A DNA stretch of 57,367 nucleotides, counting the filler, from Dugesia japonica (taxonomy: Eukaryota): assembly GCA_001938525.1 (NCBI GenBank). It is 6 parts of 6 records of this genome, joined end to end, with 100 filler letters (N's around TTAATTAATTAA, not from the genome) between each part and the next. Parts side by side here need not be neighbours in the genome. Positions count along the whole stretch, not along the records: positions 30,489 to 39,215 come from MQRL01634962.1; 5 more parts are not named here. One strand, written 5' to 3'. Positions 14,192 to 49,775 of the stretch are shown here, piece by piece (within the stretch, counting starts at the first letter, position 1; the number at the start of each line of letters is the position of its first letter). The translations under genes were made by a program, and so were the position numbers. Under the pieces are notes generated by a model. That model was not told the origin of the DNA and ran no database searches. It was given only the letters and a program-made list of their open reading frames with translations.

Positions 14192-14193
<2 letters not shown>

Positions 14194-20216: not shown

Positions 20217-21149
20217 TATTCATATGGAATAATTGTTGTCTTCGATTCGAGATTTATTAAATATGAATGTAGTGCTGTAAATGTATGTGACTTATGTCTG
20301 TTTATAATGTATGTGTAAATGAATGTTCTGAAAATTATATAGATATTTTTGTTAATTCAAATAATTCTTTTAATAATTTTGATAATTATTTTAATAATAT
20401 ATTTGATGTAATAGATACAGATTTAAATTTTGAAAATAATGAAAATAATTATTTAACTGTTAATAGAAATAATGTAATTATAGGAAATTTGATAGTAAAG
20501 AGATAGTAAAATTTGAATATCAAAATGGAACTATTTCTAAGAATAATAAAAATTATGTTCCTAAAGATAAACAAAGTTACACCATTACGGTAACGCACAA
20601 AAAATATGCCACGCTGGATTTCAGAAGGTGTACGATTTTATTAAACAAAAATATTATTTGGAAAACTTTGAAGAATTTGTAAAGAAAAATATACAGAATT
20701 GCAGAATATGTCATCGAGGTAAAGTGTATACAATGAAAACGAAAGAGAAATGTCTAAAATTAGCATCAATTATTAAGTAAAGAGAATTCATTTAATGCAA
20801 AATAATGAGAAAGAATGTTCCAAAAATGACTATGAAATACGAAAAACGAACAGAAAATTCTAAAATTTAATAAGACTGGACCAGGAAAATGAATTACTAT
20901 TAGTGTTATTATCATTATTATTATGTAATTATTGTTATTATAATTATTTTAGCCTCGTTATAAAATATCGAAAAAAATGAAAATCGAACACAGATATGAA
21001 AATTTTATGTACAAGGAGCAAATGAAGAGTTTAATAGTAAAAATAAAATGCAATAATAAAATATTATATTAGAAGGGTCTCTACAACCCGTTTTATTTAT
21101 TATAGTAACGCTAATTAGCGTTTGATATTATTATAACTGCGTTAATTAA

Positions 21150-21480
21150 ACTGGTCCAGCCACCAGTGCCTTGTCAGCTTGAGGTAAAATAAATTGAAAA
21201 TTTGTCAACAAAATAGCTTAGTCACCTAACGCTAGACAAGGACTTTGCATAGAAACAAAACCGATTATTCAGAGGTCATATGACCGGCTGAATATTTTAG
21301 AAAATGTAAGTTGGTGTGTTGAATGAAATCACACCTAATAAGGAGAGAGAAGCACAACAAGCAAACATAGACTGGCTTCCAATCAGCGGTAGTAAAAGGT
21401 GAATAAACCGTTCTGATTGGCTGACCAGCCAGCAGTTCATTTTGTCCATCTTTCTGTTCGCCAGTTTCAATAAAACTGGG
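21150..21480 (+). repeat. Dispersed repeat with inverted CCAAT pair (copy 1), probably part of a long LTR
   Basis: Homologous to the reverse complement of 31630-31960 (gtcacct..agacaa.gactt..catag.aacaa.acc.att..tcagaggtca; ccaatcagcgg...accgttctgattgg.tgac.a.ccagca). Confidence 0.85.
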
Positions 21481-22294
21481 CGACGCGTGAGGAAATCGGC
21501 ACAATGTTTTGAAAAAATCTTATTTCAACTTTTATTTGAACAAATTGCTAACTTTAATTTTTTGAACACAATTACTAATTTTTAAGTAGTAGCTAAATTT
21601 TGGAAAAAGGAAAATGAAAGTTGGAATATTTATTGGTGAGAGATCGAGGATTGTCGACGTCAGATAAGGAGAATACTAAATCGCAAAACGTCTTGAATTG
21701 CTCACCAGAAAATGAGGATAGTAATCCACCAAATGATATGAGTGGTTATTTGAGAAAGCGAGAATGTTATTTTGTAAATTTATCAAGAATGGTTGGTAGG
21801 AGAAAACGATAATGGGTGAAACTAACACGAATTGGTGATTTTAGTAAATGGTAATAACAAGCGATAGAAGTAACAAAAATTGTTGAGAAAACTAGAATAA
21901 TATGTAATGAGTGACTCCTAATGTGTTCGAAAGAACAAAAGTACTAATTGGCCAAAGCAATGTGAATTGTTTAAGAAGACTAGAACATAAATTGGCCAGA
22001 TTAATATATTACTTTCTGCAGATCAATACAGTGAAACTGAAAATAAAGTGATAAATTTGGAATTTTGGTGTTTTATAAGTCTGTGATTGAGACAACAGAT
22101 AAGATAAGAGAATAATTGTTTTCTGGGAGCTCGGCTATCTCGCATAACTAACCTTCTATGTTAGGGTGTTTATCTTGGTTCGGTTATTGGATAACATGAT
22201 TTTTTTAAAGTGATTCTACATAGAATATTATGCTTATATCAATTTATAGTTATTTTCTTTTGGTTTTCATTAATTAGNCATTGTTTAAATTATN

Positions 22295-23143
22295 TAATAA
22301 AATTATCGGTGAAAAGTTAATTTAACATTCTTAAATTACGATTTATGTCCAACGTCTCAAAATAAAACAAGTTGTTAAGGAAATTCTTGAGAGGGCTTTG
22401 TAGTAGCAGAAACCTGAAAAGATGGCGACTTTAGTGGACATCTTCTCTGATCAGTGCTATAGAAGCAAAAGAACCAGAAACGATAGGCCCCAGGCCGAAG
22501 AATCGTTAGGCAATTGTAATATTTCCTGTGAATTTATTTAAATGATTTTTGTTGTTGTTATAAGAAAAATAGATAATTTTATATTAATAGGAAATAGCCT
22601 ACTTTAAACCGCACATCCTATTGGTGCTCACTAGTGATGGAGACGAGGAAACCTTCTGAATCCCATGCCAAAATGCCATGGAACTCTTGGATGAACAGAA
22701 GCTGGGCCACGAAAAAGATATAGGAGAAGTAAAAGCAGGACAACAGGAGGTCGTAAAGCAAAATTTGGAGTTGAGACATAAGTTGAAAACAGCCAGAGAT
22801 GAGAAAAAGAAGTTGGAGATTTAACTAGAAGAGATAAGGCTGGATTTGCGAGTAACTGTACATGACATTGAAATGACCATGCAACAGACGGTTGAGTACC
22901 GAGCATTGATAGAAAAAGTGGAGGATAACATAGAAGCTAATGAATGACACTGGGGTTGTTACCGAGTTACAGGACCCAGTGATCGTCAAGATTGAATCAT
23001 TTTCTTAATAAATGCATTCNNNNNNNNNNNNNNNNNNNNNNNNNNNNNNNNNNNNNNNNNNNNNNNNNNTAATAAAATTATCGGTGAAAAGTTAATTTAA
23101 CATTCTTAAATTACGATTTATGTCCAACGTCTCAAAATAAAAC
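22295..23143. repeat. Exact 74-bp direct repeat (22295-22368 and 23070-23143)
   Basis: Identical sequence; the second copy starts right after a 50-N gap. Confidence 0.95.
22624..22947 (+). pseudogene. Decayed coiled-coil ORF (two in-frame stops), probably retroelement cargo
   Basis: ...MELLDEQKLGHEKDIGEVKAGQQEVVKQNLELRHKLKTARDEKKKLEI*LEEIRLDL...; GC-richer than the flanks. Confidence 0.55.
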
Positions 23144-25385: not shown

Positions 25386-27499
25386 ACAAATACTTTTAAA
25401 TTTAAAAAATTGAATTTAAAAGGAGTATTTACATGCTATAGTGAAAATCTTGGTATCGTTGGACTCGTAATCAGAGGACGGACTTTACTGCTATCTCGGA
25501 ATTTTAATCTGACGCATTAGTGAAGAGTTATTAAGGATTTAAAATTTTAAAATCCTTGTATAGACGCGAAAAGTTCATATCTTTGATAGTATTATGATAC
25601 CACTTGAAAGAGAATTAAAAACTACCTATATATTTTGTAAAGAATTGATATAAAAAATGCATGCTTTATTATAAAATCGAAAAACGAAGAACTTTTAAAT
25701 TTTTTAAAAATGGTTTTTGATATCATTTAACTATCTAAGAATTACTAATGATAATTAATGCTGAGTATATATAAACCAAATGAGTGTATTTAATTAAAAA
25801 TTGTTTATTTTTTATCGTGTGACGTAGATTAATTTGATAATTCGTTGAAACTTTGACTGGTCAAAAATATTTTTGACCTTTTGAAAAGTTTTTGACAATT
25901 TTGACTTTATAAAACTTTAAAAGAAGATAATTTTATGTATTCAAAGATGTTTTTACATATTATTAACAAGTTTTGAATGATTTAAAATGCAATTGTCTTT
26001 ATTGACAAAAATTGACCTAGTGATTAAGTAAAAATTCTGAATGTGATATAAAAATAAAAAAAATTAATAAATTAACGGATATATAGATAAAAATAGTAGC
26101 AAAAGTGTTAAGTTTTATTTATTTTAGAGAAGTTATCAACGACACTGATAAAATTGATATTTAAGTAGGTTAAATTATTTCAGTTTATATAAATAATAAA
26201 TTTAATAAATAATGAAAGTAAATTTTGTTTACGTAAATATTTTCTTTTAAAATAATAATAAATTTACTGTAAATATCCTTGAAATTTGTCTGAATAAAAT
26301 TATTTTGTTAAGATTAGTTATGTAACATAAAAGAATGTTTTTTTTATTATAATAATTTTCATGCAAACAAAAGAGTTTGTATAAATTTAATTAACAATTG
26401 TTTAAATTAATTTATAGTGTTTAATTAAAAAGGAATTTCTAAAATAATAGTTAGTGAAAAATATTCTAAACAAGCTTAATAGAAATAGTTTTTGTCTTAT
26501 TCGTATGTTAATTAAAAACTTTATGGTTAGAAAATAACTGAGATTCATAAATTCATAATTTATATACAATTTTACTTTTTATTTTATATTAATTGAAAAC
26601 TATTAAAATAAAAATTCCGAATAAATTTTACGTAGAAAGATTTTTGGAATTGCTTTTTTCGTTTATTTTCGTGATGATTTTAATTTCAGTTATAAATATT
26701 TCGATGTTTTGCAGTCAAAAATTACTATGAAATTCTGATGAGTAGAAAAATTCATACAAATAAATTTACGTTTATAATGGCCCACAATTTAATAATTGTT
26801 TGGATTTTGAAGAAAAATTTATCACGGTTATCAATCAAATTAATATTTCCTCAAAGCAAAAATCTTTAAACAGGATATCGCAGTCGTCTTGGTGAAGTAT
26901 TAAAAAAACAAGGAAATTTATTAAATAAATAAATTTTTATAACTTTAATTTATTGTTGCCAAAACTTATGAAATTATTATTTTGGTATATTTTACAAAAG
27001 TTTTCACATTTTTGTAATAACTCTGATTTAAACAAAATTTTATTTTGTGTTATAAAGTTATAAGTTAATTACTTTAGATATCATGTTACACAGTTAAAAA
27101 GTTTTAAATCTAAATAGTAAAAAAAATTGACGAAAATATGTAAATTGCAAAAATTATGCATATCAGTATGTTTAGTGATTAATCAATTATAATTAATTTC
27201 AGGGTTGTGATTTAGATCTTATATAAATATAATGTAATTAAAAATAAATGAAAGGAACAAAAGTTATTTTTTAAGATTTTATTTAATCATATTAACAAGT
27301 TTTAATTGAAGTTGTCTTTTAAATGAAATATCATAATGCCAATAATTTCTACTGGCAGATTTTAAAATTTTGTGGCTCAGCCTCAAATAAAAAAAATAGT
27401 AAGATTGTTTTATAAATATGTAAAAAACAATGGTAAATGTTTTATACAAAATAAATCATGCCATTTAAAATAAAATTTTATTGTTATATATTTTGACGG

Positions 27500-28255
27500 A
27501 TCAATGTTCATCATCAGGTTGTCATGGATATTGCTCATTTTCACGAAATACAAACTAAAAGAAAAGATGTTTCAGTCATGATTGACAGATTTAGTAAGTT
27601 AGTTTCTTTTGTAGCATAGAATAAACAAGACGAAAAGTCGGTGGTTGGTGCGATAAAAGAGCAGTGGATATATTGTTTTGAGAAACCAAAGTCATTTTTA
27701 ACTGATAGAGGAAATATTTTTGATGGAAAATTAATGCAATTATTTGCAGATAATTTTGAGACAAAACTAGAAATTGGATTTTGAATAGTTTTACATAAGT
27801 TACCGCAAAAAGAAAATTCATATCATAATAAATGAAGGAAGTAGCAGATAGAAACTTACAAGAAGCGGCTAGAAAGTTAAGCAAATATGAATTTGTCAGA
27901 CAAACATGCAGATAATTTTATGAAGGGTAGGAAGTTGTGATAAAGGCAGAAGAAAGACGGTTTAAGATATGAAGGTCCATATAAAATAACTAGATTCATA
28001 AACCCACACCAGGTGATTATATATTTTATAGGGAAGCTCAAACCCAGAAAATTTGAATGGTCGAAGAAGATTGAAACTTAAAATTAGAAGAGAGAACTCT
28101 TATCTTGTTATAAATTGATATATAGTTTTAGTTTATTAATTTAAAAAATTATTAATATTATTTAATTGTAAAACTTTGTTTAAATATTATCAGTTTTGGA
28201 AATTTTGGATTCTTAATAAATAAATATTTATCGAAGAATCCTGTGTCCTAACTAT
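27500..28255 (+). mobile_element. Gypsy integrase remnant with PPT and short LTR-like tail (related to element E)
   Basis: VVMDIAHF...MIDRFSKLV...QWIYCFEKPKSFLTDRG, then a deletion, then RYEGPYKI; purine tract at ~28086-28096. Confidence 0.82.
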
Positions 28256-28449
28256 CTTAATTCTTAATTTTTAAATTATAAAAATAAAAAAACGTTTTTC
28301 AAATATTAAAAAAAAGATTTTAATTTTAAATTGTATTAAAACTTTTTTGAAAACCTATAAAATAATAAACTTGTCAAATTATTTTGAAAAAACAAAAAAC
28401 AAAAATTTATAAAAATTTCAGAAATTTTAAAACTTTAAATCTAAATTTT

Positions 28450-28755
28450 TTAAATTAATTTAGTCGAAAAGGCTATCTGTACATTAATGCTTGGATTATG
28501 AAATTTAATCCTTAGCGCTTCATACATCACTCTCTCCCAATAATTTTAAAATTGTTTAGACAGAATTTTAAAATTTGAATTTTCAACATTCGCATTGCAT
28601 TTATTTTTATTTTTATGCTCAGCAATGTTACTACCACCACTAAAACGATTATGCTCTCGAACCCTTGTACAGAGATGACGAGTAGTCTCTCCAATTTATC
28701 TGGCATCAAACCCATTACATTTAAATTGATAAACAAGGTTAAATGATGACAGTAT
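28450..28755 (-). mobile_element. Penelope-like element GIY-YIG endonuclease 3' fragment (copy 1)
   Basis: NLVYQFKCNGFDAR*IGETTRHLCTRVREH...SNIAEH...FKILSK...YEALRIKFHNPSINVQ. Confidence 0.85.
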
Positions 28756-29006
28756 CTGTCGAAATATATAACAATAAAATTTTATTTTAAATAGCGTTAT
28801 TTATTGTTTTATAAATTAACTTCATTACAAGAAATACAAGAGATAAAATTGATTTCAATAATAGCTTAGCTCTGTAGGCTATTTAGAAACTATTTTTTTT
28901 GAAAGAACTTAATTTAATGCAAAAATTTATAAAAAACATTTATTTAAACAAAATATAATTTTACCAAAAATCAAGGAATATTAATTTTATTTGATTTATA
29001 ATAAAC

Positions 29007-29151
29007 TTTCAATTAAAATAAAAGTTTTGATCAAACAATTTTTGTTTTTGATTTTATTTCGAAAAAGTCATTTCATGACGAAGACAATGTCGAAAATTCG
29101 AAATACAATCAAAAACAAAAAAAATTGATCGAAGCTTTTATTTTAATGAAA
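29007..29151. repeat. Foldback / MITE-like inverted repeat (~55-bp arms, ~35-bp spacer)
   Basis: 29007-29062 is a near reverse complement of 29098-29151. Confidence 0.85.
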
Positions 29152-29271
29152 TCTAAAAAACGATCGATGGTTACTTCCAACAATTATTCTCGCAATAGTT
29201 GTAATTGTACAATATAATAAACTTGTTTGAATAAAATGAAAAATTATGATTTTAATAAAANTATAATTTAC

Positions 29272-29665
29272 CCAGTGTCTTTTAGTAATGCCAAAGTAAA
29301 TTTCGAGATAACATCGTTAAGACTGTTGGTTTTTGGAGTCATTATTTCATTCTAAAAATATTTTTACTTTATATATTTTTTTAAAAAATTTAAACATGTA
29401 AAAAATATTCATCGAAATGTGTTAGAGCTGATCCCACCCCACCTGCATCTTCCAAATCAACAGCATCAATATCCGGGCAACCGAAATGTTCTTGAGCCGC
29501 TTTCTTCATATTTGTAAAATAATTTAAATTATTTTTTTCATAAATTTAAATCCAACCACAACGTTTTCGAGAACAAATGCATCCATTATTTTATAATATT
29601 TCCCATTTATAGATTCTCTTGTTCTTTTCACTTTTTTCGTTATTTTATCATTCCACAGATAATAC
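29272..29665 (-). pseudogene. LMLN: Leishmanolysin/invadolysin-like (peptidase M8) gene fragment, three spliced exons: 29557-29665, 29396-29503, 29272-29351
   Basis: Splices in frame through GT-AG introns of 53 and 44 nt to YYLWNDKITKKVKR...FVLENVV|KAAQEHFGCPDIDAVDLEDAGGVGSALTHFDEYFLH|NEIMTPK...ISKFTLALLKDTG (third Zn-ligand His and Met-turn). The next exon is decayed and no HExxH exon is seen in the segment. Confidence 0.88.
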
Positions 29666-30361
29666 CTGTAATAATACGTTTTTAAAATTTTATTATAGTT
29701 AGAAAATGCGGATTATTTCAATAATGTAATTTGCTTGTATAAATATATTTTCTTTTTTATCAACAAATAATTTGCCGTAAAATATTCAAGAAATATCAAT
29801 TTCAAATCCCAATTTCTTTGATTGTTTCAATCAAAATACGAAATATTGGATGCAAGCAACAAAATATTTTGCAGTATTTATTCAGATGAAATTTTCTGTA
29901 AAAAGATGATGTAAGACAAGTGGGGCAAAATTTTAATTGTTCTCATGGTTCTATTACCAATGAAGAGATTGGAAAATGATTTTTGGAAACCTTCATTAAT
30001 TCGAAATCTAATTATGATAAAATAAAAGAAATATGAAAGTAGAGAACAGATGAAAAATATAGAAATTTTGAAATTCATGTTTAAAAACGATTTTATATAT
30101 ATTTCAAAAAATTTACAATGAAAGCAATTACATGAGAGTTTTTTCTGCAAGTATTATAGATTAGATGAATCAATGATAAAGTATGAAAAAAGCTTACTAA
30201 TCCTTGTAGTTTTCTTGTCAGTGAAGTGGACTCTATAAATTCGACCAATAAAAGAAATAGAAAAGAAGAAGATAATACGAAAAAAGAAAGATTGAGAATA
30301 TTTATCAATGAAAAGATTATGCCACTTAAATATTTATATTGAATGAATAATAATCATGTCA

Positions 30362-30385
30362 CTCTCTCTCTCTCTCTCTCTCTCT
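30362..30385. repeat. (CT)n microsatellite at segment end
   Basis: Direct reading of the sequence. Confidence 0.95.
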
Positions 30386-30388
30386 ATA

Positions 30389-30488
30389 NNNNNNNNNNNN
30401 NNNNNNNNNNNNNNNNNNNNNNNNNNNNNNNNTTAATTAATTAANNNNNNNNNNNNNNNNNNNNNNNNNNNNNNNNNNNNNNNNNNNN
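30389..30488. other. Artificial assembly spacer
   Basis: N44-TTAATTAATTAA-N44. Confidence 0.97.
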
Positions 30489-31629
30489 TGGATCTTTAAA
30501 TTTGTAATTTTTATTCTTGATGGCATTTTATTTGATAAACATTTTTATTGGTTATTATGCGAAGAGTAGATTGTGCATGCGTGTGTAATACTATTTAAAC
30601 AATTGTAAATAACCATAAAATTCTGTTAAAAGTGCTATAACACGATTAACCCTATGGTAAAGTAATAAATTTATTATTGAGTTAATAAATTTTGTTTGAT
30701 TTGAATTATAATTCAAGAGATTTTAGATATAATCAGAAGCATCAAATGAACCTTTATCTGAGCAAGGATTTAATATAAAGTTAGAATAATTACGTAAATA
30801 GCGAGCTTAAGTATTGGAAACCCCAACAATATTAATAAAATATATTTAAACATCAAAATGAACCAGTAAATAATAAAGCCAAAAAATAAAAGAAATATAT
30901 CGCCAATCATGCAGCATAGTCACTGAGCTTCCGTAACAAAATATTGTTTTCATACCCCACTCTGTTAACTCATTGGTTTCCTTTATCATAAGTTTTTGCT
31001 CCATAGAATTTCACAGTGCGTCGCCTGAACTCATTTATACAGCATTACTTTTTATTGATCTTATTTTTCACCATATCAATTTCCTTTTAGTTCTCATTTA
31101 AAAACCTTAAATTCCTTGATTTCGTTTTGTAGCTTTGATTTCTGTTCTCTCATTTTGCAACACCAATCTACTGAATTCATTTAACCACTTTTTTCTTTGA
31201 CCGTCTCGTTTCGCAATATAAATTTCCAGATTTCATGTTCACCGTATAATATATTTCTATACCACTTTATCACAATATATTTTCTCGATCTATTTTACAG
31301 TAAAATGTTTCTCGTTATAACTTCATCACATCATTTCTACTCGATTTTATTTTACTGGAGCACAATCGGATGGCAGTCGAAACACTCCGTTCATAAAGAA
31401 AAATTTATATAGTTCTTTAAAATTCTATAATAATTATAAATTTTACTTTGGTTATTTGTCAAAACTCGTTCCGGTCTCAGCTGGTTAAAAACTGAAATTA
31501 TGCTGTTCACTTTTAAGAAATGAAATTATTCTATTGTCCCAAAAATGAAAACCTTGCTAAATTTAAAGTTGAAATTAGGTTATCAAACTTTTTGAAATAA
31601 AATTATGATATCCTTCTCTTAAGTCTAAC

Positions 31630-31960
31630 GGTTTTATTGCCACAGATGTCGAGAAAATTGAGCTTGCTGGTTAGTCAACCAATCAGAACGGTGTATTCTC
31701 AATTCACAGCCGCTGATTGGATGCTAGCTCTTTATCACTAGGTGTGCAGACCTCTTCTCTGTCGTGTGAAACTGTTTTCGTGCAAACCATCTCGTTCGCA
31801 CTGGATGTTTTGTTGGTCACTTCTTCTGACCTCTGATTAATTGGTCTTGTTGCTATGATAAGTCTTTGTCTGACTTGAGGTGACTAACTTGTTTTGTTAC
31901 TATTTTTGTGTTTAAGCAAACAAAGAACTAGTAACTGTATCAGAATGGCGTGATTTAATT
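31630..31960 (-). repeat. Dispersed repeat with inverted CCAAT pair (copy 2)
   Basis: Inverted homolog of 21150-21480. Confidence 0.85.
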
Positions 31961-32336
31961 AACTTTATAATAATACTATTGTTGGGCTTCTAGGCTTTTC
32001 GTTGTTATTTATCTTCTCTTCATTTTTCTCTCACTTCCTTGATGTATTAATGCCAGGGGTAGATACCTAGAAGCCAGCAGAAATTCGATCAACACCACAT
32101 GTGTTGAGACCATATANNNNNNNNNNNNNNNNNNNNNNNNNNNNNNNNNNNNNNNNNNNNNNNNNNNNNNNNNNNNNNNNNNNNNNNNNNNNNNNNNNNN
32201 NNNNNNNNNNNNNNNNNNNNNNNNNNNNNNNNNNNNNNNNNNNNNNNNNNNNNNNNNNNNNNNNNNNNNNNNNNNNNNNNNNNNNNNNNNNNNNNNNNNN
32301 NNNNNNNNNNNNNNNNNNNNNNNNNNNNNNNNNNNA

Positions 32337-32615
32337 TTATTTCCATAAAGTTCTCACGTTTGCGAGCATAGCAACCTCTCGATTCGCGTATGATCTGATA
32401 ATCTCTGACATCATCCTGTTGTTCACGATGAATGTGAGTTCACTCCATCGACTCATACTCAATCTCTATCTTAAGATGGACATTTTCCGTTTAGTGAGTC
32501 TGGCAGTATCTCGAAGCTCCTTGTTTTCTTTTCGCAACTTTTTCAATTCTGCGCGTGATACCTGTTGTTCGGATAGTATCTCCTCTCTCGTCGGCTTAGT
32601 TATCCGCATCGACAT
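32337..32615 (-). pseudogene. Small unknown helical/coiled-coil ORF (93 codons, one internal stop)
   Basis: MSMRITKPTREEILSEQQVSRAELKKLRKENKELRDTARLTKRKMSILR*RLSMSRWSELTFIVNNRMMSEIIRSYANREVAMLANVRTLWK; homolog at 23151-23336. Confidence 0.65.
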
Positions 32616-32907
32616 TTCTGTGAATTAAACAATTTCATGATGCAGTTTAATCTATAAAGCGTTGATGTATTTAAAGAATAAATATAAATTTAATTAAGAA
32701 TTATCATATTCACTTCAAGTTTTCACCATTGCATGTTTTCAACTATTTGGGGAGCTTCATTTTAAATGTGATCTGAGATATTATTAAAATTAATTATAAA
32801 TGATCTATATATTTAATCGTTAATTACCCTGCTAAAACATTTGTGAAGAAAATCAACGAAACAAAATATATTATAACTTTTTATGGTCATAGTTACACTG
32901 ATGATTG

Positions 32908-33206
32908 TTATGCTAGCGTCTCTTCAACAACTTCTGCTAGTGGTTCCAGATGCGCCATGAGTATGGGAATTGCTCGCTTGATGTCTTGGTTCAATCTTTT
33001 GCCTGTTTGATTGTATTCTAAAAGGTTTAACTTGAACACTGTATTTGATCGCGTATCTTTATTTCTTTGAGCCGGAATTTATCAGTGGCCATCCACCACG
33101 GTTTCCCGTCAGCACCACCGTCCGTCCACGAATCATTAAGTATGGGCATATTGTTACAAGGACCGGAGGTGAATGACCACCCTTCTAACGACTTCCTTGC
33201 TTCCAT
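32908..33206 (-). pseudogene. Small unknown ORF with one frameshift, probable retroelement cargo
   Basis: MEARKSLEGWSFTSGPCNNMPILNDSWTDGGADGKPWWMATDKFRLKEIK / VFKLNLLEYNQTGKRLNQDIKRAIPILMAHLEPLAEVVEETLA*; GC-richer island. Confidence 0.45.
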
Positions 33207-34466
33207 ATTTCTAAACTTTCTGGAGATTTCTAAACAATTTTATCATTCATTTGACTATTTATATTACAAATGACAATAATTTCGAATATTTCACACTCTG
33301 ATCTTTGTGATCTTTATATGCAAGTAAGAAGGTGAGATTACTCGGTGAGAGCTTCGTCTTTTATTGATCTCAGGAACTGACACATCCCGACTTGTTACGT
33401 ATTAATGATTTAAAGATTTTAAGTCGCGTCAATAATTTTAGACCATTTTGTGTTATTAATTATTACTTAAACGATATCAACACAATAGTTAAAATTTTAA
33501 ATTATATTTCTGGAAATATACAACTACTTGAAATTAATTATTCTAGTTTAATTCAATAAAATAAAAACAATTCCTTCTCATAAACAAAAACATTATCATA
33601 TAGATCTATGAAATCAAAACNNNNCAGCATGATTTTATAAAGGGAAATTAATATTTTCAAGTAAATTCATGTTACCCTCAAAGTTTCTGATACTCATTGA
33701 ATACTCCAAGCACAATATTATCACTTGTGTTTCAGTAATATCAAAATATTTTAATATAATTATTTGTTTTAATCTTTCTTTTTCTCTCACAAATATAATT
33801 TTATTTTTAATACTTGGATACTTTCAACACTTTTATACAAATTATAAATAATAATAGATATTCCTTGTTTTATTGACATTCTTCGTTTCGATCCCTTTGA
33901 CTTATTTTCTGAGCATATTTTACCTTANNNNNNNNNNNNNNNNNNNNNNNNNNNNNNNNNNNNNNNNNNNNNNNNNNNNNNNNNNNNNNNNNNNNNNNNN
34001 NNNNNNNNNNNNNNNNNNNNNNNNNNNNNNNNNNNNNNNNNNNNNNNNNNNNNNNNNNNNNNNNNNNNNNNNNNNNNNNNNNNNNNNNNNNNNNNNNNNN
34101 NNNNNNNNNNNNNNNNNNNNNNNNNNNNNNNNNNNNNNNTCTCATTATTTATTTATTTTTTTAAATTCATTTTCTTATTACTCTTTAATTTATTTCCTTC
34201 TATAATTTTCATACAAATTACTGGGGCCCACAAAAAATTCCGTCCCGGAATTTATCTTGGTTACATAACTCTCTTTACACACGTTTGTTTCCATTTCGTT
34301 ACTCTCGTTTACAATTTTTTGTTGGTGGTGGTGGTTGAAAAGATCCTACAAGGCAAGACACTCATTAGTCATAACAGAAAGAAAACTTAAAAAAAATAAG
34401 CAATTATAAAAAATACTTTTATTCTATATATATTAGCATTATTTCATAGTTAAGGATCACAAAATA

Positions 34467-34800
34467 TTAGGTGACCTAAAAAGTTTCCGCGGTTTTTTAA
34501 GTAAAAAACAAACAATTTTTTTTCATANAACAAATATACTTTATTTAATTAAATATGTTCCATTTTGTTCGATCACCTTTCGCCATTTATCTGGTAAAAT
34601 TATAATACCGTCACTTTAGAATTTCTGAGATTTCTGGTCGATGAACTGTACCAGGTAACTTTCGCAGTCCTCTCTTGAAGCCCTGGTAACTCCATTAAGA
34701 AAATTTGGCAGAGACAAAAACAAATGGTAGTTCGACGTTGCTAGGTCTGGACTATATGCTGGAAGCATCAGAACCTCCGAACCAAGTTCTTTTAATTTAT
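34467..34800 (-). mobile_element. Mariner transposon 3' fragment with TIR
   Basis: KLKELGSEVLMLPAYSPDLATSNYHLF...WRKVIEQNGTYL* (34541-34799); TA followed by TTAGGTGACCTAAAAAGTTTCCGCGG at 34467. Confidence 0.92.
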
Positions 34801-35049
34801 TGTCAACTGAATCACAAAATAGTTATTGTCCACTAGATCACAAAAACAATAAATGTTACTGTTTATCTAAGACTATTGAATTTCAGTCTGTCAAAGATGA
34901 TTATCGCAGATTGATTGGGATGCAGTCAAGATTTGGTTTAGGGATGTTCCGATTGAATAAAATGCAACGTAAAACTGCCAGAATTAAACATGCAATGCAG
35001 CATAGAACTGCCAAAGAAAATGTTCATAAGATATAATGATTTAGTTCAT

Positions 35050-35885
35050 ACTGTACTAAGTACGATGTTGAGTTCATCGACCCCAGAAAATATCTTCATA
35101 TGAGGCCGAGAATAGCCATTCTTTGGATTAATTTGGGACAGGTAACTGAGTTCTTCTGGGTTGAATTGGTTCTTAGACATTGAGCATAGCTGTCGAGATA
35201 TCTGATNTAAATAACTGAGTCAAGGGGAAATAGGTCTTTGGTATTCTCCGCAATGGTATTGAAGGATGCTGATGGAACTGCCAAATTATTGGGGTGATAA
35301 CACTATTGGAATCGGTGCAACATTTAGTCTTTTGTTTTCAATATATAATTCTTCATAATCTCTCTTTAACTTCTCGTATTCATCTTTAAGCTTCTCATCT
35401 TCATTCTTTAATTTAACGCTTTCATTTTTAGCTTCTCATTCTCATAGATGAGATGTTTGTTGCCGTTCTCCGGATTCTGAATGGTTCACAAGCTATCCTC
35501 GTAAACCTCTTTCCTTTTTGACTCTCATATTCGTAACTTTCTTTATCTTGCATTTCTCTGTGGATCCGTTCGAAATGAATCCGCTGAGCCTGGATTCTGG
35601 CTAAATTATTATTTTCGATGGAAGCTTCTAGCATTTTTACCTTTCCTGATTCTATTTTATCTCCGTCTTTCGCTCTTCTAACATCATGTTTAATCTTTTT
35701 TGTTCATTACGTACTTCCTGTATAACTTCTTTTCATTCGCTTTATGCTTGATAACACTGGTTTTTCCAATGTTACGTTTGATGGAATAATTCATCTATTC
35801 TTCTTTGCAGTTCTTCTTCTGGTCTTCAAGTGGTATGTTGGAGCACTGGGTATTTGAATTTCTGCATCGATGACATTTTTGTGAA
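35050..35885 (-). pseudogene. Decayed accessory ORF: long coiled coil followed by a globular tail
   Basis: EEELQRRIDELF...MLEASIENNNLARIQAQ...EKLKDEYEKLKRDYEELYIENKRL...QISRQLCSMSKNQFNPEELSYL...; several stops and frameshifts. Confidence 0.55.
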
Positions 35886-36049
35886 TTATAATTATTAATT
35901 TTAGTTCTCTTTATTGTGATACATAAAAGAAGTTTAAAAGTATAATCAAATTATTTAATCGATTTATTGAGCTGGGCTAGTATTGTGTCTCTTTTGTTTT
36001 AGATAGTTTTAATTTGGGTACTTTATACTTTACTTTTTAATCNNACTGT

Positions 36050-39000
36050 CTTTCATTATTTAATAAATAAGGATTTAGATGTCTGCGATTGTTGCTTCGA
36101 TTTCACTTTATTCTCTTCATTTCACTTTATTCTTCATAAATTCTCTACCATTGAAGTGACACTCCTTCGAGATCATCTTCGCAACTTTTGATAATATTTC
36201 TTTGCTCGCCCTAATCGTAATCGGTTTCTCTGTTACTCCATGTCGTCTCGAACCAGTTTGACCTATCGTTTCAGGTTTTAATTAAATTTTCTCTATCCCT
36301 TTGAGTTTTGAGCCCGTCTGTCGTTTCTGGTTGTTTTATTAATATCAGTTTTTCATAATCGTTCTCACTGTCATCGTCCTCAGATTTAATCTCTGTGCCT
36401 GTATCACACCGTTTCTCTGTTTGTCGCCTTTTATTTTTGTTTATTCGATTTTTTCATTTCCGTCTAGTTGCTCTTTGTTTTTGTCTTCGCTCATTATGCT
36501 CTTTATGATCGCTTTCACTTTTATTCTGTTCAATTTCTAGTTTCTCCATTAACTCCTGACATTCAAATTTTAATGTTTGTAAGAAAAGTAGCGATCCGTC
36601 TCAATTTTCAACTTCTGTAAATGCTTTAAATCGTCTCCAAATTGTCACAATTTTCTGTCCGTCTTCTTCTGCTGTGTTTAGTTCGTTAATTTTTGCATCT
36701 ATGACTTCCATGAAATTCATCACATCCTCGCCTATTTTTGAAGAATCGACGTCCTCGTCGGCATTTGTTTGTAATTCCTTCTTAATTAATCTTTGGTAGC
36801 TCATTGGTTTTTGTGTTTCGTTTTTGAGAATCTCTGTATCTGGCGGATGTGCTTCCTTTGTCTGTTTCACGTCGTGATTCTCGTTTATTGCACCTTTTAC
36901 TTCTTGTTGAACTTGATTTATTAGTGCTTTATCTTGTCTCTCCAAATCACCCTCTCCCTTCGAAAAATCGACGTCCTCGTCGATTCGAGGCTGCCNNNNN
37001 NNNNNNNNNNNNNNNNNNNNNNNNNNNNNNNNNNNNNNNNNNNNNCTTGATACGATAAGATTGCTGTTTCATTTTCCGTTGTGTCATTACTTTATGTAAT
37101 TTGTTAACCGTTTTCTCTAATTGATGTCGCATTATCTCTGTAAACATAATTTCTTGAACACTGTATTTGGTATGGGTAATTCAGTTACTTCATCTTCTGA
37201 TTTACATCTGAGACATCCTTGATTATCTGGTACCGGATGATTNATCAACCAGCTTCTTCGTGCTATTATAATTAGTGAGTCTTTCACCTCGATTTCTGTC
37301 TTTTGGAAACATTTATTACATAAATTCTTTAAGTCTTCCACCACAACTGGACATTTAGTTGGTTTCTTTGATACACATAGGTTACACTTCTGAATTATTC
37401 AGATTTCCACAGAATGATAATAATAATTAAGTATATCTCGTCTATTTTCAATTTTAGTTAGATCATTATTAAGCTGAAACTTTCTCATAATCTCCTCAGT
37501 TGTTAATTCAATATTTACTTTTAGTGGTTTTACTGCTGATAAGCCGGTTAAGTGATTAAAGACACATCTAATTTCACTACTTATTATTCGTCTCGCATTT
37601 GTTATACAATTATTACACCATTGTTTATATTTCTTCTTAGACACGTTTAATTTTAGTACTACTTCCATACATTGTTTACATGCTGATCTTTCAATATCTG
37701 TTTTCTCTTTATACACTTGTAATGATACTCTATTAAGTTCTCTATTTACATGCACGATTTTATTTTGTGTCGTTTTCAAACATTGATAGCACATTTTTAG
37801 CAATTGACTTTTTAACAAAGGTACTGTTTCTCGTCTCGTTTTTTGACCGATTTTACACCGATTAATTTCTTTGTTTGGTTCTTGAATCTCCAAAATTCCT
37901 GTTATTGGTTTTGCTGTTAACATCATCACACGATGTCTTGATCTGATTGGATATCTCTGTTCCTTATCCGGCTTGTCTAATTTAAACCGAACTCTTTTTA
38001 TTTTACTCGTTTTGGGTTCTGTTTCTATTAGGTTTTCTTTATCGGTTTCGATTTCCTTGGTTGGTAATTTACATCTTGATACATGTACGATACATGGTTT
38101 CTTTAGTGGTTTTCCAAATTCTTTTAATTTCAGATTTGTTGCCGTTGTTTCGATCACCATATATGGGCTTTTATTTGGTGTCTTTAATTTATCTGTCTTT
38201 CCAATATCGATTGTCGGTGTATTTACTAACACATGATCCCCCTTTTTAAATGCATGAGCTCCTGCTTTACGATCGTGTAATTCTTTGTAACTTTTTTGAC
38301 TAAATCTTGCATTTGTTTCGGCCAATTTCCACATTTCCTTCATTCGATCTTTCATGCCAGTCACATAATCGTCTTCATCCATGTATTGTGAAATTGGTGG
38401 TTGATATTCTAGATCCATAGGCATATTACATTCTCTTCCATACATTAAACTGAATGGTGTTTTTCTTGTTGTCGGATGGACTCCGATCCTATATGCAAAA
38501 AGACATAAATTCAAATGTTTGTCCCATTTTCTTTGATCCTTTGAAGCCTAACTCAAGAGCATTCTTGTTAAAGTTTGATTGAATCTCTCTGTCATTCCGT
38601 CCATCTGCGGATGATATGCCAATGTCCGTAGTTTGTAAATATTGAAGAAACTTGTAACTTCTTTCATTAACTCGCTCATAAAGTTCTTCTCTTGATCCGC
38701 TAAAATTTTCTTTGGAGGCTCATAACGACTAAATACTTTGTCTACTAACACTTTGCTTCTAGGAATTTTGATAAATAATCTACTACTGTTAAAATATATA
38801 TCTTACCACTGTCCGTTGGTGGTAATGGTCCAATTATATCAATTGCTATTATATCCATCGGTGCTGCTGGCACTGGAATTGGTTGTAGCGGAACTTTGAT
38901 TTTCTTTCCCGTTCCTCTCCTTGCTGCGCATATTTGACATTCTTCTACCTATGTTTTTACACTTGTCGTTATATGTGGCCAATAATATTTTGCTCTCAAT

Positions 39001-39215
39001 TTTGATTCCGTCTTTTTAGCTGACATATGACCTCCTAATATTCCATTATGATATTGCTACAAAATCTTTGCTCGTCTATTTTTAGGTAATACTAACAACA
39101 CTTTTAAGTGCTCCTCGAATGTTGTTGAGAATATCAATAAGTCGTCAACATATACCATACTCTGTGGTATCCCATGTGTCACAAAATTCATCGTTCGTTG
39201 AAATGAATTCGGAGC
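36050..39215 (-). mobile_element. Ty3/gypsy element C: integrase with a long Cys-rich and charged C-terminal extension
   Basis: H...GGH...YYWP...CQIC; IAIDIIGPLP; ILADQEKNF; YHPQMDGMTERFN; ORF 37399-38514 (TPFSLMYGRE, GPY-like SPY) continues into CxxC motifs; further decayed ORFs at 37132-37344 and 36601-36945. Confidence 0.9.
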
Positions 39216-39315
39216 NNNNNNNNNNNNNNNNNNNNNNNNNNNNNNNNNNNNNNNNNNNNTTAATTAATTAANNNNNNNNNNNNNNNNNNNNNNNNNNNNN
39301 NNNNNNNNNNNNNNN
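39216..39315. other. Artificial assembly spacer
   Basis: N44-TTAATTAATTAA-N44. Confidence 0.97.
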
Positions 39316-40940
39316 AAAAGTTATAAATTAAATATACCGGGAAAATGAATAGGAAAAAGAAAAGATATAAATATACGAATAATATTACAGGCTTTGGAAA
39401 GAAACGAGATAACACTTCGTGACGTAGAGGTAAATGAAATACAATTGTATTGGGAGAAAAAGAAAGAACTGTGAATACGAGATGAGATGCTATATTTAGA
39501 AAAGGATGAGAAATATTTTCTTATTGTACCCAGACATAAAAGAGAAGATGTCATTTGGAAATATCATAAGTTATTGGGTTATTCAAGTGTAGAGAAAACA
39601 ACAAAAGTTATCAAAAAATGAATATTATTGGCCGTGTATGGATAAAAACATAAGAGAACAACTATCTAAGTGTAAACAGTGTAATGCGCATAAATATATT
39701 AAAGGAAAAATTAAAGCACCATTGCAGAATATATCCGAAAAATAACCATTTTAAAGTATTGCAATAGATATTACAAGACCATTTAAACCAACGCAATATG
39801 GTTATAAATATATTCTTGGAGTTGTGGATTATTTTTCCAAGTTTATGTTTAATTACATTAAGAACAATAACAACTGAAAATATATGTAAAGCTCTTTGGA
39901 TACATTGGATATCCAAGTTTGAAATATCTAGTTGAATTCACTCGGATTGTGGTAGTAATTTTATTTCACGTGCATTTCAGAAATATTGCAAGCAATTGGG
40001 AATCGTGAAAAAATTTTCATCTCCATATTACTCTTAAGGAAACGGATTAGTAGAAAGATTATTTAGAACCGCAAAACCTATGATTAGTGCAGTACTAGAA
40101 GACAGGCGAATTCAAGATTGGAGTACGATGCTACTAATAATAGAATACGGATTACGAACAACAACACAAAAACGACTAAGTGCACTCCGTGTGAAATAAT
40201 ATTTAGGAGGAAACCTAGAATCAATATTTTGAACGATGGAAGAAGGGAAACGAACATCACAAAGAATTCTGATCAATATGTAGAACAATTAAAAAGAAAT
40301 ATTATGAATATTCATGACCATGTATATTGAAAGAAACATAATATAGAAGAAACAAAATATTGAAGAACATAATGAAGTTACAGCAGCTAAATATGACAAA
40401 TATTGATGGAGAGATGAAATTAAAATTGATGATAAAGTTCTGATAAAAACAATGCACATGATGGTTTTAAAAAGCAATATATTGGACCATTTTAAGTAAT
40501 AAAGAAAATTAATGAATGGACTAACACTTTGCTTGATGAAAATAGAAACACTTTAATTCAACGAAATTACAACCAAATCAAAAGAATAACAAGAGATGAA
40601 CTTTCCTACAAGTCCTGGAGCACACAAATATTACTAAGAACCTAACAGAAAACAGCTTTACCAGTACAACCTGACCTACGATATCAGAAGACGTTATCCA
40701 GAAAGAATAACAAGGAATCCGAATCCTCAATATCGATAAAGCAAAGGAGAAATGTGATATATTTAAATTATGATAATGTTTAAATAGATCTAAATGCAAA
40801 TTATTGAATAATTAAAATTAAATTTAATTAAAATTAATTTGAGTAAAATTAAAATTAAATACTCAAAATATTAAAATGAATTTGATTTGTTTTATTTTTG
40901 TTATTTTATGAAATATAACTTTAACTTGTTTAATATCTTA
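39316..40940 (+). mobile_element. Ty3/gypsy element D 3' part (integrase, PPT, 3' LTR start)
   Basis: YYWPCMDKNI...CKQC; IAIDITRPF; GVVDYFSK; IHSDCGSNF; SSPYYS*GNGLVER; purine tract at 40738-40752, then TGTGAT at 40753. Confidence 0.88.
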
Positions 40941-40949
40941 TTACAAAAT

Positions 40950-43900
40950 CGATTTATGATAAAGTAAAGGAATTGTCTTCAATTAAACAGAGAATAGAAG
41001 ATAAGTACAGAAATTTTGAGATTCGAGTTAAAAAATAGTTACAGACATATTTCAAAAGAAATTAACAATAGAAGAAATTGCAAGATCATTTATTCTGCAA
41101 GGATTACAGAGTGAGAAACTACGTGAATTCTTTGCCATTAACCCATCAATTTCTGACGAAAGAAAAATGAATTTGCAACGAATTTAGAAAACTTGTTTTT
41201 GCATTGAGAAGTTCATGTCATGAAACCAACATATTTGCCAGTGATTAGTAAACATAGATATTATAATAAACGTTCAGAAGGGAAGACACATTTTGAGCAC
41301 CAAAAGAATTCAGGAAATTTTAAATCATCAGAAAATAGAAATAAATCTGAAAAATCAACTACATAAAAAGATCGAAATAAAAATTTTCATAATCGAACAA
41401 TAATGTGAATTTTTCTCATCAAACCAATAGACAACAACAATCAATGAAGATGATTGCAATGAAATTTTACAATCAATGCAGGGGTAAAGCGCCTCCACGT
41501 GAAAAAATCTTACAACAAGGGGTATGCTTTTATTGTGGTATTATGAGTCATAGACTAAATGAGTATCCGTTTACAAGTAAATGTTTAATTTGTAGTAAAA
41601 ATGGTCATTATTTCAAGGACTGTTATTTGGTTATCAACGGCCATCAAAATGGAAGAATATCATGTATTCATGACGAAGAGCAAAGTGTGAACGAGATGAA
41701 TAATTTAGATGAAATGGAAAAAGACTCTTACCAACTCCTTGTAGCTATCTCGTCCGTGGAGTTGAGTCAATAAATTCTATTAATAATAGAGATAGAAAAG
41801 AGGAAGATGAGATGAATTATGAAGAATTTAGTATGTTTCAGAAGTAAGATGGACAGCAATTGAGTATTATGAATTGTAATTGATGTGATATTGAAATATT
41901 GTTGGTTTCTGGAGCATCAATAACAGTGATGAGAGAGGAAAATTGAATCGGAATTGGTGCATCTAGGATGATAAATTCAGAAATTAGATTGTCAAATGTT
42001 TTTTCTTCAAAACATAAAGTATGTCTTGGTAAGATATTTATGCAAATTTTATGGAAAAAGAAATCCTTTGATGAAAAAAACTTTGTTAAAAGTATTTCTC
42101 CTGGTTTTATTGGTGGAATAGATGTGATGAAATTATGTGGAATTTTCTCGGCAGAAGTAAAATTGATTGATTAGTCTGAAGTAAATACAACATATACAGA
42201 TTTTGATGGTGTTAAGACAGCATTAGATTATGTTGCTCCCAAAACTACATTTATTGAAAACCTTATTAAAAAATATGGATCAATTTTTTGGCATCTAAAT
42301 TTGATTTACGAATCACTACATTGATTAAACATCATGTTAATACAAAAGGACCTACAATTTCTCAAAATCCAAAAAGACAACAAATGTATTTAGAAGATAA
42401 AGTTAATAAATTAATTGAAGATTTGTTAGAATCAAAAATTATAAGATCATGTAAAAGCCCATGGAATAAACCTGATATAAACACGTTTTGGGATACCTTA
42501 AATGGATCAACTATATTTTCATCTAAAAACTTAGGACAAGCTTATTATTAAGTTGTATTAGACGAAGATTTACAAATGAAAACAACTTTTAGTATAAAGA
42601 TTGGACAATTCTGTTTTAATTGGTTGCCTTTCGGTTTATGTTCAGCACCGAAAACTTTTCAGAGTTAAATGAATTTGATTTTTAAAGGAATGCTGTATAA
42701 AGATGTAATTGTTTTTTTGGATGACCTTTTAGTTTATTGAAGAACTGTTGATGAACATAATCAAAGATTAGAAAAAGCATTTAAATTAATTAAGGCATTA
42801 AAATTTAAAGTTAATCCAGGAAAATTGTGTATTCCGATCTGATAAATTGAATTTTTTGGGGCACTCAATTAGTAAAAAAGGAATTCAAACTAACGATGAT
42901 AAAATATAAAATAACAGAAGCACCATTCCCAGGTTGTGTCACGCAATTAAGATCATTTTTGGGACTATCTAATTATTATCGTCGATTTATCAAAGATTAT
43001 GCAATTATTACTGTCCCTCTATATGGAATGATATCAAACAATGAAAAAATGACTAAATGGTCCACATATGCTGAAAGTAGCTTTCAAAAGTTAAAGTATG
43101 CATTATCCACATCACCAATATTATCATTTCCTGATCCATAAAAATAAGTTATTTTTGATACTGATACAAGTTTTGGAGGTATTGGAGTTGTTCTAAGCCA
43201 AAAAGATTACAAAGGCGATGAAACAGTCAGGTTTTGTTTCGAGAGTTTCAAATTCTCACGAGATAAGTTATTGTGTAACCAGAAAAAACTTTTGGTTATT
43301 CATGAATTTGTTATGTATTTTAAGCATTATTTAATTTGGAAAATTTTAAAATAAGGACAGACTATAAAGCTTTGACTTATATGAAGAAAACAAATAAACT
43401 AATTAGTCCACAGTTTCAGACTTGGTTTTGCTAGTCTTTCTGGATTTAATTTTGATTTAGAATATTGGAAAGGAACGAATCACAGTAATGCTGACGGCTT
43501 GTCCAGAATAAATGAAACGCTGCGTAGTTAATGTTTAACTAAATACCATAATGGTAAAGGGAATAAATCTAAAATTCGATTTATAAACAGCTTAAATGAA
43601 AATGTATTTTATGACAAAAATATGGAAAAGTTAAAAAATACAAAAATATAAAAAGTGGAATACTAACATCAATATTACGCTAGTTACAAGGATTGGATAA
43701 TCATGTAACTACTGAAGTAAAAAAAATCAAATATTTTAAAAGTATAGATAAATTCAAATTATTTGGCAGCATTGTAATTAAAGATGACCAAGTGAAGAAA
43801 GTAATCGTTATAACAGAAAATTACTCACCAAAATTAGTCAAATACTTGCACGAAGAACTATGTCATTTGGGAAGCAAGAAGTTAGTGGAATATATTTGAG

Positions 43901-44960
43901 AGAGATATACTTCTAGCCTGGTATGAGTAGATAAATCAAACACAAAATTTAAAAATGTAAAATATGTGCCAAAAAAGGTCTACATTGGTCGAACGAAAGA
44001 ACTATTGTTACCTAGAGAAGGATTTGGACCACTAAAAAAAATTATAATAAATGTGGCTAATTTTTCTGAGTATAAGTCTAATCAAAAGTGCTTGCTTGTT
44101 ATTATCGATAGATTTAACAAACTAGCTCGACTGATACCTCTTAGTACACAAGATAAAACAGCAGTATCAGATGCAATAAAGAATTATTGGATTTACCTAT
44201 TTGGAAAACCAAAATCAATCTTATCTGATCGGGGTACAGTTTTGGAAGGTAGTAAAATTAACGAGTTGTGTGGAAGATTTGAAGTTACACAAGAATTTAC
44301 ATCACCTTACCAACATCAAGCCAATGCTTTAGCAGAGCGAGTAATTAGAACAGTCAGAAATATGTTAGTAACTTCAATGAATAGTAATAAAAATAGATTT
44401 TTTTGGAATAAATACATTCCCAAGATTGAATTTTTAATTAATGCAGCATATCAAAGCGCTATAAAGAGATCTCTATTTGGAATTCTATGTGGGTAAAAAG
44501 AGCTGTTACATGAGTTGTTGAGAAATGAGCCCGCTAATCATGAACAAGTGGTTAATGACAAAAAAGTAGAGCTGAAACGAGTTTCGGAGGAAGTTAGAAA
44601 GTACAAATCAGATACAGGAGGTCACCGACAATTTGCAATTGCTGAAAATGGTCTTGTAAAAAAATAATTTCATAATATTCATAAAAGTGGAGACAGATAT
44701 GAAGGTATGTATACAATTGTTAAGTTTTTAAGTCCCACATCAAGTGTTGCTGAATTTTCCAGATAAACCAAAGTCAAGACGAGTTGAATGGCTAAAACGA
44801 GTTTCAATTTCTATGGGGAGGGAAGTTAGAAAATAGTGATACTTTAAACCGTCAATTTTGTTTGAATAATACAAATTATAGTATTTTCAAATAAATTCTT
44901 AATATCAAAGTCTTTTTACTTGGATAAATAACTAAAAAAAATTAATAAATAATAAATAAT
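40950..44960 (+). mobile_element. Ty3/gypsy element E, degenerate and near full internal length (gag, PR, RT, RH, IN, PPT)
   Basis: Knuckles in 41405-41773; decayed protease LLVSGAS; RT SPWN, LPFGLCSAP, VFLDDLLV; LRSFLGLSNYYRRFI; DTDTSFGGIGVVLSQ; IN 43966-44496; PPT GGGGAGGGAA at 44815-44824. Confidence 0.93.
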
Positions 44961-47205: not shown

Positions 47206-47922
47206 TTAGGTTGGTAAGAAAATAATTTCGGTTTTATATAATATTACTTTAAAAGTAATTATTTAAAAGAACCGTTTGTTTTAATATATTAATCTATAAG
47301 TCATTTTAAAGCGGATTTTCAATTTGACATTATGCAAGTAATATTTTATTTTTATAACTATTTTAATGTGAAATATTATTTTTCGAAGACATGTTGGATA
47401 AATATCAAATACGAGCAATATTCCTATATGAATTTAAACTGGGATCTAAAGCGGCAGAGACGATTCTGATAGTCAACAGCGCATTTGGCAATGAAACTGC
47501 AAAAGAAAGAACTGTACAATTTGGGTTTAAAAATTTCAGGAGTGGAGATGAGACCCTTAAAGATGGCGAAGGTTGGGACATTCATCAGAAGTTAGCAAAG
47601 ACGATTTGAAGGTAAAGATCGAAGCAATTCCAATGCAACAACTCGGGAGCATGGGAAGAATTTATACCACCTCTATCAACTTGAAAAAGTACGGAAGCTC
47701 GATAAATGGGTTCCGCATGAATTAAACTATTTTCAGAAAAATTCCCGTTACGAGATCTACTTAGCGAATCTGTTTAAAAATAAAACCAATCCATTTCTTG
47801 ATTACATTGTGACTTGAGACAAAAAATGGATTGTATACGACAATAAAAAGTGAGCATTGTCATAATTAAACAAAGGCAAAGCTCCATATCATTTTCCAAA
47901 GCAAAATTGCATCAAAAGAAGT
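47206..47922 (+). mobile_element. Mariner transposon 5' part (cecropia-like), pseudogenised
   Basis: TA plus TTAGGTTGGT TIR; ORF 47391 IRAIFLYEFKLGSKAAET...FRSGD; KLDKWVPHEL; FLDYIVT*DKKWIVYDN. Confidence 0.93.
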
Positions 47923-47957: not shown

Positions 47958-48057
47958 NNNNNNNNNNNNNNNNNNNNNNNNNNNNNNNNNNNNNNNNNNN
48001 NTTAATTAATTAANNNNNNNNNNNNNNNNNNNNNNNNNNNNNNNNNNNNNNNNNNNN
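47958..48057. other. Artificial assembly spacer
   Basis: N44-TTAATTAATTAA-N44. Confidence 0.97.
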
Positions 48058-49705: not shown

Positions 49706-49775
49706 AATAACTTCTAGAAACCAAGACTTCATTGAACAAAGACCTTGCTCATATAAATAACCCGACTGCTAAGGT
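49706..49775. repeat. Diverged, internally deleted copy of 50035-50133 (AMFR 3' end region)
   Basis: aataacttctagaaac.aagactt...aacaaaga...ccttgctc.tataaataac occurs in both places. Confidence 0.75.

Follow-up and report, generated by a model that had tools for sequence, protein, structure and literature searches.

A decayed, abundant gypsy retrotransposon family of Dugesia japonica with a CxxC-rich integrase tail and stacked PPT-type end signals

The stretch of DNA analysed here, a window of 57,367 nucleotides from the planarian Dugesia japonica (GenBank assembly GCA_001938525.1), consists of six unrelated scaffolds, one of which (30489-39215) carries one copy of an abundant Ty3/gypsy retrotransposon family, a copy that has decayed and suffered an internal deletion. 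The scaffolds are joined by 100-nt linkers (9222-9321, 18073-18172, 30389-30488, 39216-39315 and 47958-48057); therefore, no feature can be read across them. Positions 30489-39215 represent exactly one assembly scaffold, delimited at its lower and upper ends by artificial linkers of the form N44-TTAATTAATTAA-N44 (30389-30488 and 39216-39315), so that its limits are not the limits of the element. The element parts of the scaffold all lie on the minus strand, and three internal N gaps are present (32117-32335, 33928-34139 and 36996-37045). A preliminary description of this scaffold had taken its whole ~8.7 kb for a part of one giant element, with a series of genes interrupted only by a mariner fragment. 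This had to be narrowed down: the three N gaps also break the series, the sequence from 30489 to ~31520 is a low-copy flank, and the scaffold holds only ~7.7 kb of a 3' part, the 5' part being outside the window, so that a giant size is not supported.

The first element part in the direction of reading is a fragment of the reverse transcriptase (RT) with the YVDD motif (39105-39215, minus strand; Pfam RVT_1, E 9e-5). In this copy, it is fused directly to the integrase, and the end of RT and the RNase H are missing. The contigs of other copies, taken from DNA sequencing runs, continue differently at 39104, where they have loose ends, which indicates that the RT end and RNase H were lost from this copy by an internal deletion. 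The gypsy integrase (37800-39104, minus strand) is composed of the H2C2 zinc-binding domain (Pfam Integrase_H2C2, E 2.6e-17), the core, a C-terminal part and a linker, and contains stops as well as a short deletion near 38755. The best PDB match of the core is the Ty3-G Gag-Pol (E 4.5e-9). Thus, RT lies upstream of an integrase with gypsy-type H2C2 and core, which is the Ty3/gypsy order.

As the preliminary description had proposed, the integrase continues in frame as a CxxC-rich extension. The tail of ~220 residues (37135-37800, minus strand) is clearly coding: there is 1 stop in the 321 codons of the extension (p 0.003) and six CxxC motifs compared with 0.94 expected (P 1.5e-4, 20000 shuffles). 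The stop-depletion test was performed on 16 regions with 300 dinucleotide shuffles, for which p 0.003 is the floor. Because the six CxxC motifs pair with spacers of 17, 18 and 19 residues, their spacing suggests three predicted C4 zinc fingers. The last cysteine is missing in this copy, and the frame is broken near 37135, at the end of the tail. Pfam gave no match of the tail to LIM or GATA zinc fingers, to which only the C4 spacing is similar. The only structural hint, a PINCH LIM domain, was not significant (E 2.9), and the single-sequence fold of 37402-37860 reached no more than a predicted local distance difference test (pLDDT) score of 41. No relatives of the tail were found among the 384 candidates of a protein search or among 1.84 billion protein representatives, and there was no usable Atlas match. 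When the integrase and the tail were compared with longer proteins, 3 of 1334 matched, all of them being distant integrase matches; the best database matches covered a third of the query at 29-33% identity. In two of these three distant matches the integrase stands before RT, an order which we take to be of the Gmr1 type; it was rejected here because RT precedes the integrase. Other gypsy integrases carry targeting modules at the position of the tail, and we regard it as a candidate for, and likely to be, a targeting or regulatory module.

The N gap following the tail (36996-37045) is bridged in other copies with 0-3 letters, and the best-supported bridge keeps both sides in register, judged by length alone. 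Beyond the gap lies a charged low-complexity stretch (36049-36993, minus strand; 39% D/E/K/R), which is also clearly coding, with 7 stops in 314 codons (p 0.003). It is followed by a decayed coiled-coil open reading frame (ORF) with several frame breaks (35049-35876, minus strand), the stop depletion of which was not significant (p 0.26) and the Pfam match of which to HALZ (E 0.009) remained below the cut-off. The copies vary in length within this ORF at 35514, 35641, 35828 and 35835. Further on, the 3' fragment of a mariner transposase (34467-34796, minus strand; SETMAR, E 7e-11) is inserted in this copy. Other copies have the site without the fragment at a depth of 1650-1800; therefore, the sequences on its two sides are directly joined in many of them. 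The similarity to transposase together with the insertion into an otherwise continuous site identifies the fragment as part of a mariner DNA transposon. The charged region to ~36050, the frameshifted coiled-coil ORF and the mariner piece were all named previously, and all are present.

Public sequencing runs were used for the examination of other copies. For this, the contigs of three DNA-type runs were aligned to the scaffold at 80%; 15 of the 115 joints and 24 of the 2780 loose ends from these runs, and 15 of the 22 joints from a second alignment set of runs, were listed. The summed contig depth given below is not a copy number, and sister families may inflate it over the tail. Each DNA run yielded 3578-4488 contigs, most of them less than 99% alike, as in a dispersed multi-copy family, and the depth of the family was ~40-fold to >1000-fold above that of the flank. 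In the three runs, the depth was 470-36000 in every bin of 31944-39215 and 270-375 at 31653-31943. The contigs of other copies overlap along the integrase, the tail, the charged stretch and the coiled-coil ORF, and the contig of one copy joins 36963 to 34257. As these overlaps, the bridged gap at 36996-37045, the mariner-empty site and the 36963-34257 joint all connect neighbouring parts, it is well supported that the sequence from the integrase to ~34213 is one multi-copy family.

Beyond the next N gap (33928-34139), a short, extremely abundant segment was found (33740-33927, minus strand, the lower limit being approximate) with an AATAAA at 33874. Its bin depth of 26000-36000 (31745 and 8292 in finer bins) is at least ~10 times that of its neighbours. 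Two purine-rich stretches, 33760-33790 and 32005-32034 (minus strand), are 81% alike over 31 nt and are possibly duplicated spacer units. ORF A (32908-33206, minus strand) has ~99 codons over two frames and is missing from a minority of copies, which skip 470 nt (32797-33268) at a depth of 67-84. ORF B (32337-32615, minus strand; ~93 codons) is a basic coiled coil with one internal stop and enters the N gap at 32117-32335, across which each DNA run supplies one bridging contig (32113-32350). Both are GC islands (44% and 42%, respectively) among spacers of 23-25%, and the start of each cargo ORF, as we call the small frames downstream of the tail, sits behind an acceptor-like AT-rich tract. The earlier statement that the cargo proteins fit no family agrees with our results, as no Pfam match was obtained in the frames scanned. 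Neither of two candidates was a relative of ORF A; its Atlas matches (0.92; 144-148 shared features) are eukaryotic clusters without a name, which is a lead only.

The CCAAT module (31523-31975, minus strand), present as previously described together with the two ORFs, consists of two inverted CCAAT boxes, an AATAAA at 31638 and a T-rich tract. A second, diverged CCAAT module on another scaffold (21126-21581, plus strand) shares 62% identity with it over 484 columns (E 5e-31). Judged from these motifs, the module at 31523-31975 is likely the U3 end, R and U5, i.e., the promoter and polyadenylation end of a long terminal repeat (LTR); LTR motifs of the CCAAT/AATAAA type are described in an excerpt of PMC3601003. 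Downstream of the second module, a possible TGG site resembling a primer-binding site (PBS) occurs near 21633 (plus strand), followed by decayed small ORFs (~22400-22950, plus strand), one of which is a coiled coil without a Pfam match; 21126-22960 (plus strand) may comprise a 5' LTR and, downstream of it, small ORFs. An exact 75-nt duplication in the same region (22294-22368 and 23069-23143), beside an N gap, is probably an assembly overlap. Below the CCAAT module of the scaffold under study, the low-copy flank (30489-31520) probably lies outside the high-copy family: the depth was 10-31 at 31071-31652, single contigs cover 30766-31882 and 30783-31882 with 2-5 differing letters, and these unique contigs end at 31882.

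Three hairpin motifs were found on the minus strand. Motif 1 (36943-36984) has a 7-bp stem and a GAGGAC loop, after which come a T run, a purine tract of 12 nt and TG. Motif 2 (36720-36760), which like motif 1 overlaps the charged stretch, has a 4-bp stem, the GAGGAC loop and a degraded purine tract. Motif 3 (34213-34253) has a 7-bp stem, a GGGAC loop, a T run and TGT, and is without a purine tract. The hairpins, at 36978, 36756 and 34246, are the only three of their kind in the 57-kb window, and two hairpins with stems of at least 6 bp arose in none of 1000 simulations. Of the six G-rich purine tracts in the scaffold (11 or more nt, 5 or more G), only that of motif 1 has TG directly after it. 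A T run ahead of the polypurine tract (PPT) is a priming feature known from PMC10085805. Going by this arrangement, motif 1 is likely the PPT and LTR start, and motif 3 is likely a relic end signal. Twelve contigs diverge after 34213, there is a local depth peak at 34232, and motif 3 is also common to other contigs.

The preliminary description had stated that no PPT or LTR follows the integrase. This fails, because the hairpin, purine tract and TG of motif 1 (36984-36943) directly follow the tail. A PPT or LTR at this place had also been named as evidence against the layout proposed there; this is borne out in part, as what is found is a PPT-type signature, and any of the three signals may be the one in use.

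The hairpin pattern also occurs elsewhere. In two of three raw RNA runs, both from one study, reads match only 36984-36943 and have flanks unlike those of the scaffold on both sides; the two runs have 12 and 5 such reads at one flank and 7 and 5 at the opposite one. The sharing stops at the TG, as expected of a signal common to several families. The scan of metagenome contigs with the hairpin pattern gave two loci, and that of viral contigs gave none. At the first locus (L001), which belongs to an unrelated element, an identical 16-nt hairpin has an LTR end with a PBS-like site on one side and a purine tract on the other. The purine tract leads into a TGTAAC...GTTACA repeat unit, so that the hairpin there precedes an LTR start with matching inverted ends. 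The segment L001:18-590 appears as a miniature LTR element with an LTR end, the PBS-like site, an internal part of ~170 nt, the hairpin, the PPT and an LTR of ~350 nt. The second locus (L002) has the hairpin and a purine tract, and an LTR was not confirmed there.

The reading that we favour, though only tentatively, is that a 3' LTR of ~5.4 kb (~36945-31520) encloses the CCAAT/AATAAA module together with the charged stretch and the three small ORFs. The cargo is placed inside the LTR because a PPT-type signature follows the integrase tail; at the far end, the CCAAT boxes, the AATAAA and the T-rich tract are conserved in the second module. Under this reading, motif 1 would prime plus-strand synthesis, and three small soluble ORFs would be carried in the U3 of the LTR along with the charged stretch. 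As priming shifted upstream, former internal sequence would have been taken into U3 and the LTR would have lengthened, with motifs 2 and 3 as earlier priming sites, now decayed relics inside the grown LTR. The small soluble ORFs could be accessory regulators made from sub-genomic RNAs, and the CxxC tail could tether the integrase or be cleaved off as a regulator.

A number of observations weigh against this reading. The depth does not step up past motif 1; values of 2900-16000 over the tail compare with 2000-5500 in the coiled-coil ORF and 470-3600 in ORFs A and B, and the high-copy depth drops ~tenfold below 31882, inside the CCAAT module. In this copy, the 5' half of which is outside the scaffold, no terminal inverted repeat was found between five candidate starts and 31300-31700 (best 7 of 10). 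None of the small ORFs reaches significance in its stop count (ORF A, p 0.61; ORF B, p 0.083). No RNA joints, and thus no spliced RNA, were seen on 31300-37000 in three raw RNA runs from two studies, so that splicing is neither shown nor excluded; the runs, sampled at 6, 25 and 26 in 100 of each run, gave 14, 136 and 113 reads on this region, mostly on the mariner piece, with a depth below 2.5 elsewhere. The hairpin motif was picked post hoc, and the folds are unremarkable in comparison with shuffles (z -1.8, -0.8 and -0.4). Motif 1 lies in an open frame, and therefore coding could preserve it. Upstream of the second CCAAT module, no homology to the integrase or the cargo ORFs was found. Finally, no bridge over 33928-34139 was present among the joints listed in the two sets (15 of 115 and 15 of 22), which proves little, since a repeat beside the gap (34140-34171) was skipped in the contig alignment.

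The link across this gap is carried by scaffolding, the shared strand and modestly similar ORF start contexts. The contexts are alike for the coiled-coil ORF and ORF B (P 0.005) and for ORFs A and B (P 0.001). Also to be counted against a single LTR are the comparison of the coiled-coil ORF with ORF A, which was not significant (P 0.78), and the fact that 7 of 1818 other ATG contexts outscored both ORFs against ORF B. Thus, the earlier claim of one element holds for the integrase to ~34213; for ORFs A and B and the CCAAT module, beyond 33928-34139, membership is only putative. The occurrence of the cargo and the CCAAT module independently of the integrase, named beforehand as an argument against one element, is seen in part, in the module at 21126-21581 without a detected integrase or cargo upstream.

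The depth profile can also be read in favour of a shorter LTR in one element. Over 36900-34800, it is not above that of the tail, as if the charged stretch and the coiled-coil ORF formed an internal 3' cassette, with the LTR starting from motif 3 (~34215, ~2.7 kb), only ORFs A and B inside it, and motifs 1 and 2 being internal or relic. The 12 contigs diverging after 34213 begin, by eye, like the TGTTRNR att consensus given in the available part of PMC3601003, and the very abundant AATAAA segment follows the gap. However, motif 3 has no purine tract here, the listed majority differences create none, and the complete signature belongs to motif 1; we consider such an LTR rather unlikely.

It is likewise doubtful that the scaffold is a composite, in which a short LTR of very high abundance closes the integrase element just past motif 3, and one or two other repeats, adjoined by insertion or scaffolding, contribute the CCAAT module and ORFs A and B. 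The stepwise depth (the spike, then ~1000-3600, ~300 and ~10-30), the second CCAAT module in another context and the gap without a bridge among the joints listed are consistent with it. On the other hand, all parts lie on the same strand, the start contexts of ORFs on either side of the gap show a modest similarity, and the repeat skipped at 34140-34171 deprives the missing bridge of most of its meaning. If this composite reading were true, only the tail would remain of interest.

The layout of the preliminary description, an internal multi-gene cassette from the integrase to ~31980 followed by an LTR consisting only of the ~450-bp CCAAT module, is very unlikely: although the homology between the two CCAAT modules covers just 31975-31523 and a purine-rich stretch is present at ~32040-32012, the depth of the module (270-375 at 31653-31943) is lower than that of the internal parts, and hairpin/PPT/TG signatures are absent from its start and are found further upstream.

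The favoured reading of a gene-bearing LTR has analogues among known elements. HIV nef, MMTV sag and foamy-virus bel are retroviral ORFs that overlap U3, the frame running through the PPT into the LTR, and chromovirus integrases carry a chromodomain tail as an extra C-terminal module. Both are analogies only; no Pfam match to such domains was found here.

The nearest known system, judged by its description, is Burro/GYPSM1, the giant gypsy of planarians (PMC6431247). Both are abundant gypsy elements of an AT-rich animal genome with extra domains fused into the polyprotein, accessory ORFs and implied multi-kb LTRs; such LTRs are implied for Burro by its total length of >30 kb and internal length of up to 25 kb (PMC6431247). 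Burro/GYPSM1 has an ORF1 of ~4900 residues. In the 3' part studied here, no MATH, BIR, ankyrin, BCL2, env or dUTPase was found (Pfam, scanned frames), most of that Burro cargo lying upstream of RT and thus in a region outside the scaffold, and a multi-CxxC tail after the integrase is not mentioned in section 7 of PMC6431247. The MDG1/412 elements (bioRxiv 10.1101/2025.03.14.642691) are gypsy elements as well; they lack env and carry small accessory ORFs (sORFs) of ~70-110 residues, which usually stand upstream of gag but, in some Lepidoptera, downstream of pol. Their sORF2 has a transmembrane helix, unlike the cargo here: the search for a helix of the sORF2 or FAST-like fusogen kind gave a maximal 19-residue mean hydropathy of 1.43 over nine cargo frames and 0.97 in the tail. 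Cer1 CERV of C. elegans (PMC10309623) offers no more than a functional precedent, namely an accessory regulator of the gypsy class that is produced from a spliced RNA, whereas no spliced reads were seen here in the three raw RNA runs. The platyhelminth GAG-ENV-POL errantiviruses (PMC13524379) are flatworm gypsy elements with extra coding capacity as well; their env lies upstream of pol, a region outside the scaffold, and no env-like or membrane segment follows downstream here. Nothing describing either this architecture or the hairpin was found in the literature covered; Repbase reports, supplements and subscription papers were outside its scope and may hold the family. PMC8532177, PMC13524379, PMC10085805, PMC11410931 and PMC13238120 provide context only, the family being undescribed in the parts of them available.

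Other decayed gypsy gag/pol pieces occur in the window at 14400-16800 (minus), 19150-20070 (plus), 39500-40750 (plus), 41400-44500 (plus) and 54100-57100 (minus); where integrase ends were read, the pieces stop shortly past the integrase, without a CxxC tail or hairpin. Pieces of a host gene at ~48950-51917 (minus), in which membrane segments and a RING-like motif occur, resemble a gp78/AMFR-type E3 ligase, and 47367-47609 (plus) is presumably the N-terminal piece of another mariner-like transposase.

Taken more broadly, the three signals may belong to a gypsy lineage in which giant, gene-bearing LTRs arise through upstream shifts of the plus-strand priming site. Each shift would trap a coding block in U3 and leave a disabled hairpin-PPT, three of which would stand in order here, and the lineage would combine LTR-encoded regulators resembling those of complex retroviruses with a triple zinc-finger integrase tail. 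We put this forward as a speculative and rather improbable proposal. The gypsy family in the scaffold is real: it is abundant and decayed, its end signals are stacked, and its integrase bears a CxxC tail that is undescribed. Giant planarian gypsy elements have already been described; the stacked PPT-type signatures offer a cheap, checkable model of how their LTRs may grow. The ~220-residue CxxC tail, without a relative among the protein representatives searched, is a candidate for a new targeting or regulatory module.

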